Part shown: piece after piece, positions 70 to 11,750 of the stretch
How positions within the stretch are numbered: position 1 is the stretch's first letter
How the letters are laid out: each line of letters starts with the position of its first letter
Assembly (NCBI GenBank): GCA_951406725.2
Contig: OX597841.1
Coordinates: forward strand, 1,054,001 to 1,118,000
DNA: 64,000 nucleotides
Source of the DNA: Octopus vulgaris
Lineage: Eukaryota
Direction of reading: 5' to 3'
Translations under genes and position numbers: made by a program
Notes under the pieces: model-generated
Told to the model about the DNA's origin: nothing
The model's database searches: none
Seen by the model: only the letters and a program-made list of their open reading frames with translations

Positions 70-483
70 TATATTCTTTTACTTGTTTCAATTATTTGAC
101 TGCGGCCATGCTGGAGCACCTCCTTTAGTCGAACGAATCGACCCCAGGACTTATTCTATCGGTCACCTTTGCCGAACCACTACGTTATGGGGGTATAACC
201 ACACCAACATCGGTTGTCAAGCGACGGTGAGGGATTAACACACATACACACACACACACACACGCGTATATATATCGCCATGTTGATTCGCTAGCTTTTG
301 CACGCATATTTTTTTCTCTCCTTCTTTCTGTGTTCTTTTCTCTGTGTATCTTTCTGTTGAAGAGCGTAGGCTCGAAACGTTAAAAACTTGTTTCATTTAT
401 ATTTCCTGAGCGCCATACTAATACAATTGTTTGTCTGTATTCCACCTGCCTTCGTCTTTTGTTTATTTTCATAAAGCTTACCG

Positions 484-526
<43 letters not shown>

Positions 527-2218: not shown

Positions 2219-4072
2219 ATGAATTGTCCTATGTTTATTGTCAGCATGGATGAATTAACTAAAACCAACTTCTTAGACATTACCCTCAATTTGCAGAATA
2301 ACTCATACTTCCCTTATCATAAACCTTCCACAAATCTTAAGTATATTAGCATTTTCAGTAATCATGCCAGGCCAATTACCGATAATTTAGTCAAAAACAT
2401 ATCTCTGAGACTGTCTAAATTATTTGCTAATGTCGACATCTTTAACCAAAAAGCAGACTTCTATAACGCCGCCTTGTTAAGAGCCGGTTATAAGGAGAAA
2501 GTGTCACACATCGACTCAGCTCATCCTAAACCAACATCTGCTTCTCCAGATAGAAAAGTTACTCGTAATTGGAATAATGATTTCAATTCTAATAGTGCCA
2601 GCAACCCTGTACGTAAAATAAATTCTTTACGGACTTGGGGAGGTAAGCGCCATTCAACCCCAAATTTCCAACCCAGAAATTTTCCCCTTACTATCACAAA
2701 TAACACTAAGAACAATTCAAAGGTCACAAAAAACTGTATCTGGTTCGTAATACCTTCCGGAAAACAAATTAAATCTAACCTTCCCTTACAGTTCCGTGAA
2801 GCCGTTGCTAGGAACTTTCCCAGAAATTCTAGATATCATTCTATTATCAATTCCCACATAGTCAGAATAGCTTTCTCTAACACTAGGAATCTTTCACAAA
2901 TTATATCTTCCCACAATACCAAGCTCCTAAACAAAGATTCTACACCCGGGAGTTCCAACACTAATCTTGCTAATTCCAACCCATCATACAATCATAATAA
3001 TAGGAATAGTATTAATAGTAACAGCATTGGCAGCAGCGAAAGTGTTAACAATGATAATATTAATAATAGTATTAGTCGTGTTAATAACAATGGTAGTGTT
3101 GATGGTAACAACAATAACGGTATTATTGTCGGTGGTATTACTGGTTGTAGTACCATTAATAATACTAATAATAATAGAAATAGTGTAGTTGCTGGCGCTA
3201 ATAATAATAGTAACAACAATCATAACAATAAAAACTTCGTTTCGATCTCGGAGGACAACCCCAACAGAATTAAATTTTTGTCTAGTAATTCTAAGATTAA
3301 GAATTCTATTTACCAGTGTAGAATTTCTTCCGGTACCGATGTCTTCTATATAGGAGCGTCCACTTCCCAGTTATCCAAGAGAATTTCTAACCATTATTCA
3401 ACATTCAGGGATAGTAAAAAACGACATAGTACAGGGCTAAGTAAATTAGTTTGGCGTCTTAAAGACAACAATATAAATTTCAAGTTAGATTGGTTCATAC
3501 TGTCTGTATCCTTTCCTTTTGATAAGGACAGGAGATTTTGTAACATTTGTAACACTGAACTCTTCCATATTCTCTTCTCTAAGGTTCCCCTAGTAAACAT
3601 ACTCATAGAAAAATCATACAAATGTAAACACTGGCAGAAACATACTTTCTACTCATATAAATGATAACGATAGTCACTATGGTTTGAACAATTAGCTTCA
3701 CGTCCACCCCACTTCTATAGCGAAATTCTTTCCTAAGCCTTCGAACATTCTTTCAATCAACGTACTCTTCCCTCTCCACTTGTTCCCTACCTATTATTCC
3801 TTTAATCCTTCTCTTTCTACTATCTATCTTTGACGTCAATTCTTCTAACGGTTTTTTAAAAAACACTCATTATCGTTTTGTTTACCATGTAGGCAGTCAT
3901 CAAAATTTTTGTTTGTCTTGTTGTCGAGAGAGGCTCCCTTTCTTTCCTGATGAGAAGATTGCATAATGCACCCTTTATTCCTTTGGAATGAAAACATGTT
4001 GTCTTCGAAACATATGTCGAGAGTAAAGGAATTTTGTTAACATCTTCGTTCGACTCCATTCTTTCATTTATT
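2219..4072 (+). mobile_element. 5'-truncated Penelope-like retroelement (RT thumb + C-terminal GIY-YIG endonuclease, probably Hydra-type clade) inserted in (TA)n
   Basis: ORF 2219-3664 has FLDITL...YHKP...YI...SNH (PLE RT C-terminus/thumb), then SIYQCRI...FYIGAS...KRISNH...STGLSK...W...CNIC...CKH (GIY-YIG). (TA)n lies on both sides and there is a hammerhead in the 3' region. Confidence 0.88.
3936..4030 (+). ncRNA. Type I minimal hammerhead ribozyme in the PLE 3' region
   Basis: CTGATGA at 3947, stem II GAAGAT/GTCTTC, GAAAC-ATAT-GTC with palindromic ACATATGT stem III, stem I CCTTTCTTTC/GAGAGTAAAGG. Predicted cleavage after 4018. Confidence 0.85.
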
Positions 4073-4180
4073 TATATATATATATAATTTGAATTAGAAA
4101 TAAAACCACTGTTATGCAACTCAGTGATAGACATAAACCAATACATAAATAACAAATGATATCAAAATATAATTAATATA

Positions 4181-5242: not shown

Positions 5243-5284
5243 GCCAGAGTTCTTTCGTCACACTCCTGTGACCTCATCAGTGGT
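5243..5284 (-). ncRNA. Minimal hammerhead ribozyme
   Basis: Minus strand reads CCA CTGATGA G GTCAC-AGGAGT-GTGAC GAAAG AA CTC TGG: intact core, 5-bp stem II, 3-bp stem I. Lies in a segment abutting (TA)n. Confidence 0.65.
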
Positions 5285-10104: not shown

Positions 10105-11750
10105 AGAGATGAAAGGAAAAAACAGAAAGATGAAAGGCAAAGATGAAAGATGAAAGGTAAAGAGATGAAAGGCAAAAATGAAAGATGAAAGGCCAAGATG
10201 AAAGATGAAAGGTAAAGAGAGGAAAGGCAAAAATGAAAGATGAAAGGCCAAGATGAAAGATGAAAGGCCAAGATGAAAGATGAAAGGCCAAGATGAAAGA
10301 TGAAAGGCCAAGATGAAAGATGAAAGGCCAAGATGTATGAAAGGCCAAGATGAAAGATGAAAGGCCAAGATGTAAAATGAAAGGTAAAGAGATGAAAGGC
10401 AAAAATGAAAGATGAAAGGCCAAGATGAAAGATGAAAGGCCAAGATGAAAGATGAAAGGCCAAGATGAAAGATGAAAGGTAAAGAGATGAAAGGTAAAAA
10501 TGAAAGATGAAAGGCCAAGATGAAAGATGAAAGGCCAAGATGTAAGATGAAAGGTAAAGAGATGAAAGGCAAAAATGAAAGATGAAAGGCCAAGATGAAA
10601 GATGAAAGGTAAAGAGATGAAAGGCAAAAATGAAAGATGAAAGGCCAAGATGAAAGATGAAAGGCCAAGATGAAAGATGAAAGGTAAAGAGATGAAAGGC
10701 AAAAATGAAAGATGAAAGGCCAAGATGAAAGATGAAAGGCCAAGATGTAAGATGAAAGGTAAAGAGATGAAAGGCAAAAATGAAAGATGAAAGGCCAAGA
10801 TGAAAGATGAAAGGCCAAGATGAAAGATGAAAGGTAAAGAGATGAAAGGCAAAAATGAAAGATGAAAGGCCAAGATGAAAGATGAAAGGCCAAGATGAAA
10901 GATGAAAGGTAAAGAGATGAAAGGCAAAAATGAAAGATGAAAGGCCAAGATGAAAGATGAAAGGCCAAGATGAAAGATGAAAGGTAAAGAGATGAAAGGC
11001 AAAAATGAAAGATGAAAGGCCAAGATGAAAGATGAAAGGTAAAGAGATGAAAGGCAAAAATGAAAGATGAAAGGCCAAGATGAAAGATGAAAGGCCAAGA
11101 TGAAAGATGAAAGGTAAAGAGATGAAAGGCAAAAATGAAAGATGAAAGGCAAAAATGAAAGAAGAAAGGCCAAGATGAAAGATGAAAGGTAAAGAGATGA
11201 AAGGCAAAAATGAAAGATGAAAGGCCAAGATGAAAGATGAAAGGTAAAGAGATGAAAGGCAAAAATGAAAGATGAAAGGCCAAGATGAAAGATGAAAGGC
11301 CAAGATGAAAGATGAAAGGTAAAGAGATGAAAGGCAAAAATGAAAGATGAAAGGCCAAGATGAAAGATGAAAGGCCAAGATTAAAGATGAAAGGTAAAGA
11401 GATGAAAGGCAAAAATGAAAGATGAAAGGCCAAGATGAAAGATGAAAGGCCAAGATGAAAGATGAAAGGTAAAGAGATGAAAGGCAAAAATGAAAGATGA
11501 AAGGCCAAAATGAAAGATGAAAGGCCAAGATGAAAAATGAAAAGTAAAGAGATGAAAGGCAAAAATGAAAGATGAAAGGCCAAGATGAAAGATGAAAGGT
11601 AAAGAGATGAAAGGCAAAAATGAATGATGAAAGGCCAAAATGAAAGATGAAAGGCCAAGATGAAAGATGAAAGGTAAAGAGATGAAAGGCAAAAATGAAA
11701 GATGAAAGGCCAAGATGAAAGATGAAAGGTAAAGAGATGAAGGGCAAAGA
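10105..11750 (+). repeat. Purine-rich higher-order minisatellite (GATGAAAGG-based) embedded in a family B SINE
   Basis: Monomers GATGAAAGGCCAAGATGAAA, GATGAAAGGTAAAGA and GATGAAAGGCAAAAATGAAA form 55- and 75-bp higher-order units. SINE B sequence lies on both flanks. Confidence 0.92.

Follow-up and report, generated by a model that had tools for sequence, protein, structure and literature searches.

A hammerhead-shaped module with U at position 6 in a small (TA)n-associated repeat of Octopus vulgaris

The window analysed here is a stretch of 64,000 nucleotides of Octopus vulgaris DNA (contig OX597841.1), and it contains four copies of a repeat with a module that is built like the minimal hammerheads of Penelope-like elements (PLEs) and that has U at position 6. 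The question raised by this locus is whether such a module is still a ribozyme, a relic of one, or a fold kept for another use. The published consensus of minimal hammerheads consists of a U-rich tract, NNN, CUGANGAH, G...C, GAAAN, a palindrome, NUH, NNN and an AU-rich tract (PMC4209133). The A at position 6 is found in 56 of the 56 representative sequences in Fig. S3 of that paper, whose search required A6. Hammerheads are near universal in canonical PLEs and are poor cleavers (PMC4209133, PMC8557442, PMC11167929); PLEs are tied to (TA)n, and the role of the hammerhead in them has been left open (PMC8557442). For O. vulgaris, 31 recently active Penelope-like families have been described, in an account whose available part makes no mention of ribozymes (PMC13282606).

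The repeat and its module

The repeat is about 200 bp long, and the 36-nt module lies mid-element in all four copies, that is, it is not the whole element. The copies have the positions and strands reported in the first-pass annotation (Table 1). A profile made from them gave four matches in the 64-kb window at E<1e-50, the next being at E 0.8, and thus no fifth copy was found there.

Table 1. Coordinates of the repeat copies, their modules and the TA tract behind copy 1
Feature	Position in window	Strand	Description
Element copy 1	276..484	+	About 209 bp without an ORF; this strand is T-rich; preceded by a short TA run, followed by (TA)19
(TA)19 target tract	485..522	.	Fixed end of copy 1; a tract at the same end of each other copy
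Copy 1 module	350..385	+	Stem I 5' arm 350-353, C3 354, U6 357, extra A 361; stem II 362-365/370-373, GAAA 374-377, palindrome ACGT 377-380, N17 381; stem I 3' arm 382-385, outer pair lost
Element copy 2	41548..41729	+	Most divergent copy, 69-72% alike to the rest beyond its module; followed by (AT)19
Copy 2 module	41604..41639	+	C3 41608, U6 41611, G7, palindrome broken (ACAT), N17 41635
Element copy 3	50347..50548	-	Very long (TA)n tract after
Copy 3 module	50442..50477	-	C3 50473, U6 50470, C7, N17 = A at 50446
Element copy 4	58951..59153	-	Lies behind another repeat within a TA run; followed by (TA)n
Copy 4 module	59050..59085	-	C3 59081, U6 59078, N17 59054; reference for the contig alignment

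The module is made up of CTTT, CTGTNGA, an extra A, GAGC-RTAG-GCTC, GAAA, C-R-T-W and AAAR. All four copies have C3, U4 and G5, G8 and A9, G12, A13 and A14, and the pairs A15.1-U16.1 and G10.1-C11.1; N17 is U or A, in agreement with H17. That is, 12 of the 13 core positions are kept, and the one that is not is the A at position 6, in the CUGA turn. The hammerhead-type architecture originally proposed for these copies is borne out, in that the published minimal consensus is followed except at A6. The same holds for several of its details, namely U6 and the extra A in all four copies, a position 7 that reads T, G, C and T across them, and a 4-bp stem II (GAGC/GCTC) intact in every copy. The variable sites fall where hammerheads are free, at position 7, in loop II and at position 17. 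Two details of the proposal apply to part of the copies only. The loop-less palindromic stem III is present as ACGT in three of the four, whereas the 41.6-kb copy has ACAT; the 6-bp stem I is seen in the 59-kb copy but is private to it, with CT and not TG at 59048-59047 in 97-99.9% of contig depth. Stem I has at least 4 bp in three copies and 3 bp in the copy at 348, where a C-G pair is lost. The extra A, which had been counted as a second anomaly, is none, because it belongs to the PLE minimal hammerhead consensus (CUGANGAH); this leaves U6 as the sole deviation. Because the defining base A6 is absent, we do not count the motif as a PLE minimal hammerhead. By its sequence it is built like one, and its self-cleavage is putative.

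With position 6 left free, a relaxed descriptor gave six matches in the window, namely copies 1, 3 and 4 and three unrelated motifs with A6, and none in 30 shuffles; a stricter descriptor gave three matches and none in 20 shuffles. Since the shuffles returned nothing, we conclude that the module is not a product of chance. Its folding energy alone is unremarkable (z -1.0 to -2.2). For copy 4 there was no Rfam match at E<=10, in a search run without a canonical minimal hammerhead as control, and those found for the window, among the matches listed (150 of 598), were microsatellite artefacts. A shifted register, in which the core starts from the UUGAAGA word, was rejected on inspection, since stem I and the greater part of stem II would be lost in it. 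In the predicted fold, U6 lets U4-U7 pair with A14-G16.2, which would hide the palindrome in a 4-bp helix. The pair probability is 0.92-0.98 for three of the four pairs in copies 1 and 4, and the helix is weak in copies 2 and 3 (0.3-0.4); the A6 version adopts another misfold of similar energy. Closing of the core by U6 is a lead only, drawn from these predictions.

None of the four copies contains an ORF, and the hammerhead strand is T-rich (43-46% T). In every copy the 3' end is fixed to within a few bases and followed by a long (TA)n tract, while the opposite end is ragged; loose contig ends lengthen the ragged end by about 15 nt, into TA. This pattern would fit target-primed copying from the fixed end, and the non-autonomous, PLE-like setting in (TA)n suggested at first reading agrees with it: ORF-less, with one fixed and one variable end in four of four copies. 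All copies extend 80-100 nt 5' of the would-be cut site. Such read-through fits, weakly, the copying of uncut RNA, and canonical PLE copies likewise run through. The copies are solo, at least 8.6 kb apart in the window, and no head-to-tail joint occurs among the five joints listed in contigs, which are short enough that some could hide joints containing a TA run. The repeat is not a tandem retrozyme, and the retrozyme-like label given to it has to be dropped.

Other repeats lie close by. Just upstream of copy 3, at 50569-50788, there is a long inverted repeat with 104-nt arms, 78% complementary, and a 12-nt spacer, which looks like a MITE or an inverted PLE-type insertion. Tandem arrays are found at 10126-11748, 17060-17793 and 29192-29821, with periods of about 75/205, 182 and 49 bp. 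The frames at 12890-13330 (-) and 45344-45760 (-) resemble C-terminal pieces of non-LTR retrotransposon proteins, putatively of the restriction-like endonuclease type and the RTE type, respectively.

Conservation of the module and of U6

In the alignment of the four copies, the module is invariant at 31 of its 36 columns and the remainder at 90 of 146 gapless ones (p=0.005, a value from only four related copies); with gapped columns included, the outside count is 90 of 178. The best-conserved 36-column windows all overlap the module, where variation is confined to five columns, namely position 7, loop II, 16.2, 17 and the outer base of stem I. About 30% of the gapless flank columns set copy 2 apart from the other three, compared with 3-4 of the 36 columns in the module. 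Slippage and low complexity of the flanks are a caveat on any such comparison. The stems are near invariant and, within the family, free of covariation, which is uninformative either way. Among close-relative contigs, 4 of 36 places vary in the module versus 18 of 175 elsewhere, about equal in density. At the stem I edges, contigs of three DNA-like runs depart from the reference, 250-273 per run at 59049 and 159-210 per run at 59085.

The copy 4 stretch, whole or in part, was found in 21 of 24 listed sequencing runs, from 12 studies with four organism labels. Contigs of four runs (7269, 10421, 22638 and 2102; 42,430 in total, under three organism labels, one run being only guessed to be RNA and not counted as a sign of expression) were aligned to copy 4 at 80% likeness, and differences were listed from 2%. 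At position 6 no base other than U reached 2% in any of the four runs, in an alignment of close relatives that probably missed divergent subfamilies, and no variant at 2% was listed at the other core positions. N17 changes from U to A in 44-76% of depth, with G not listed, and G16.2 to A, which breaks the palindrome, in 2-6%; a single C to U change in stem II, with the wobble kept, accounts for 0.5-7%, and a single change in stem I for 2.5% in one run. The variants that copies 2 and 3 have at position 7 and in the loop were likewise not listed. Across the module, copies 3 and 4 share at most 14 identical letters in a row, and such subfamilies were thus probably outside the alignment. The U6 result therefore covers subfamilies like copies 1 and 4, and for the others the evidence is the two window copies, both with U6. 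As far as sampled, in four of four copies and in the four runs, U6 is fixed in the family, as had been claimed; an A6 subfamily elsewhere in the genome is possible.

Three unrelated hammerhead motifs in the window keep A6, one of them behind a PLE endonuclease frame. That one belongs to a 5'-truncated PLE remnant at 2219-4078 (+), which lies between TA tracts and comprises an RT thumb, an Asn-rich insert and GIY-YIG. Its broken frame (2219-3664) aligns with the RT-thumb and GIY-YIG regions of three longer proteins; the best homologue, from Octopus sinensis, is 59% alike over half of the query (one of four matches). Pfam gave no name, and the identity comes from these homologues. The canonical-core type I hammerhead of the remnant, at 3942-4023, is on the coding, T-rich strand, and the remnant ends in a TA run. 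The repeat shares these traits, that is, a hammerhead on the T-rich strand and a TA run behind the 3' end. Stem II of this hammerhead is unusually long and bulged (about 55 nt), and stem III is an 8-nt palindrome. At 20041-20076 (+), about 290 nt behind a TA tract, a minimal hammerhead with canonical core has a stem II of 3 bp and a palindrome of 6 nt; no PLE frame was detected there. The third motif, at 5244-5283 (-), has a canonical core, an extra G, a stem II of 6 bp and a stem III of 2 bp; its strand is A-rich and ends in (TA)n. As to a parent element, the repeat has no similarity to the tail of the window PLE or to the other two hammerhead regions, and by eye no likeness to two octopus Naiad consensuses over their final ~600 nt.

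Metagenome contigs were searched with a pattern that left positions 6, 7 and the loop free. Among 108 matches (90 distinct contexts), position 6 was A in 98, G in 4, C in 3 and T in 3. GTH follows in 76 of the 98 A6 matches, and a UH site together with a stem I of at least 3 bp occurs in 61 of the 98, versus 0 of the 10 non-A matches. At locus L056 the hammerhead lies about 100 nt behind the stop codon of a frame with a CxxxxCxxC linker, as described for Neptune-type PLEs (PMC8557442); the GIY-YIG match of this frame is weak, at E 0.002 short of the curated cut-off. A Neptune-type endonuclease frame like the one at L056 lies upstream in 15 of 120 loci, some of them duplicates. The A6 twin (L004, L007, L056) is like the module of the repeat in stem II, the extra A, GAAAC and mostly GTC, with letters set by the pattern. 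It is unlike the repeat in having A6 and another stem I, with two pairs swapped, and its flanks have no detectable relation to those of the repeat. At the level of sequence this shows that the combination of this stem II, the extra A and the palindrome occurs in an A6 PLE hammerhead, as a type and not as a line of descent.

Several further comparisons with the twin were set aside. Likeness between its 5' flanks (16 loci) and those of the repeat was equalled by 19-75 of 200 shuffles. Stem covariation between the two was discounted as support, as a slide by +1 scores equally and homology is unproven. The relaxed pattern's 12 matches in GTDB and 10 non-A6 metagenome matches are read as chance; of the 10 tested, none had a UH site with stem I. 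The exact U6 pattern gave no match in either metagenome or viral contigs. Many loci of the twin (L051:599-899, L008, L013, L015, L023 and others) show, immediately before the hammerhead, a partial copy of it in inverted orientation, and their shared sequence usually starts only 1-8 nt before C3.

Disarmed fold, slow ribozyme or relic

We give a probability of about 0.55 to the reading that the repeat is a non-autonomous PLE derivative whose hammerhead was disarmed by U6 and whose fold is kept for another use. The loss of cutting is argued from published activities. Single and double mutants of the CUGA region had low activity except for the C3-G8 swap, a result for the region and not a value for A6U (PMC9901934); in one ribozyme, A6C lowered kobs from 0.3 to 3.55e-6 per min at 0.3 mM Mg2+ (PMC7151607); and single minimal hammerheads are described as uncleaved (PMC4209133). 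The reading as a whole is also argued from PLE insertion in vitro, which was unaffected in hammerhead-dead mutants and whose main template was uncut RNA (PMC11167929). Further points in its favour are the agreement with the consensus except at A6, U6 in all sampled copies, the contrast between the module and its surroundings (31/36 versus 90/146 invariant), A6 in the other hammerheads of the window and in most metagenome matches, and the predicted closing of the core by U6. According to this proposal, the repeat would be read as part of longer transcripts, and an autonomous PLE that targets (TA)n would supply the RT-endonuclease that binds its uncut RNA in trans. After nicking a TA tract, this enzyme would start copying at the fixed end of the RNA, and variable 5' ends would result. 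For the PLE protein, the hairpin-and-junction fold may be an element of recognition or folding; with cutting lost, the 5' half of the repeat itself would be spared, as would the host transcripts in which it lies.

Several observations pull against this reading. No parent element was found among the candidates compared. The 12 other core positions, the palindrome and H17 are kept, and variation is found at the sites where hammerheads are free, as continued catalysis would give. Copies 2 and 3 have a weak closing helix, and a misfold of similar energy is predicted for the A6 version. In Anolis, the region bound by the PLE protein was mapped by truncation and not to the hammerhead fold as such (PMC11167929). 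Finally, close-relative contigs vary as densely within the module as outside it, and the p value comes from four related copies.

The same 12 kept core positions, both stems and the palindrome, with position 17 limited to U or A, are what one would expect if this were a natural A6U ribozyme that still cleaves after GUU or GUA, whether at a slow rate, by dimerising in trans at the ACGU palindrome, or aided by PLE protein or Mn2+. A natural A6C hammerhead has low activity in Mg2+ and prefers Mn2+ (PMC3088659, PMC7151607), in which it cleaves at about 0.3 per min (PMC7151607), A6U being unnamed in the available parts of these two papers; the Anolis PLE hammerhead cuts only when its protein is present (PMC11167929). 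We nonetheless regard a cleaving A6U form as unlikely. Mutants of the CUGA turn are weak and were not rescued by a second change (PMC9901934), the solitary copies, with no head-to-tail joint listed, offer no partner in cis, the cut site is spanned by all four copies, and the exchange of U and A at position 17, next to an A run, may stem from slippage. Between the variant ribozyme and the inactive fold that the first-pass annotation had offered as options, the inactive fold is the better supported, both being candidate readings. A founder may instead have lost A6 by chance and been amplified, so that the module is functionless and looks conserved since T-rich flanks slip faster. Such a relic would be in line with the dispensability of hammerhead catalysis for insertion in vitro (PMC11167929), with Naiads, which thrive without canonical hammerheads (PMC8557442), with the like density of variable places inside and outside the module, and with low-complexity flanks of 43-46% T. 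It accounts poorly for copy 2, so much more diverged in its gapless flanks than in its module, for the overlap of all best-conserved windows with the module, and for the 159-273 contigs per DNA-like run that depart from the reference at the stem I edges (59085, 59049); we hold it to be quite unlikely.

That the repeat does not derive from a hammerhead at all, being SINE-like or some other repeat whose likeness to the motif comes from a B-box-like word plus a chance hairpin, seems very improbable. The module of all four copies does contain a B-box-like word with one mismatch, on both strands, Rfam was silent on copy 4, and no parent PLE was found. On neither strand of any copy, however, is there an A box or an exact B box, and the B-like word lies mid-element. 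The hammerhead strand contains runs of 7-8 T, no tRNA gene was found, the B-box likeness comes with any CGAAAC core, and the descriptors matched nothing in 50 shuffles.

Four copies in 64 kb correspond to about 1.7x10^5 copies in a 2.8-Gb genome, a rough figure that assumes a typical window. A successful family in which the whole shape is kept and a core base changed is a natural experiment on the role of the PLE hammerhead. If it is uncut and the fold is nevertheless needed, the motif has a non-catalytic role. If the U6 form cuts, the invariance of A6 does not hold in nature, and whole families have been overlooked by descriptor searches that require CUGA. A more daring version, which we consider decidedly improbable, is that the U6 hammerhead cleaves family-wide only when dimerisation or a PLE protein opens a self-inhibiting core helix; its copies, on the order of 10^5, could then cut the host transcripts that carry them.

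Comparison with known systems

The comparison in print also covered PMC7229834, PMC6765202, PMC12192606 and PMC11014351. Within this scope, no natural U6 hammerhead and no octopus hammerhead family was found. The novelty of a U6 family is provisional; Lunse et al. 2017, reportedly the largest survey of small PLE hammerhead variants, may contain such variants.

Non-LTR retrozymes share with the repeat a small size, the absence of coding sequence, a type I hammerhead and a proposed origin from PLE pLTRs (PMC7229834; bioRxiv 10.64898/2026.07.22.740005). They are, however, defined by tandem units and circular RNAs (PMC7229834), whereas the octopus repeat is solo in (TA)n and has an altered core. 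Non-autonomous PLEs such as MRC1 of Chlamydomonas are likewise ORF-less, microsatellite-associated and presumed to be moved in trans; they share 3' sequence with a known autonomous family (PMC8557442), and none was found for the octopus repeat. The natural A6C hammerhead of phage Bcep176 is also altered at position 6, but it has C and not U, is a single phage copy, and has been shown to cleave, weakly and with a preference for Mn2+ (PMC3088659, PMC7151607).

Among the closest known systems are the PLE minimal hammerheads (Cervera and De la Pena 2014, PMC4209133). Unlike these, whose described core variant is U3-A8, the repeat has a U6 that is fixed as far as sampled, and no linked PLE ORF. Shared with them are the U-rich 5' flank, the short stem I, the base between 9 and 10.1, the G10.1-C11.1 pair, GAAA, the loop-less palindromic stem III, the UH site, the AU-rich 3' flank and mostly solo copies (PMC4209133). 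The minimal hammerhead of the Acropora Neptune element has the same layout, with a 3-bp stem I, a 4-bp stem II and a tetraloop (PMC4209133).
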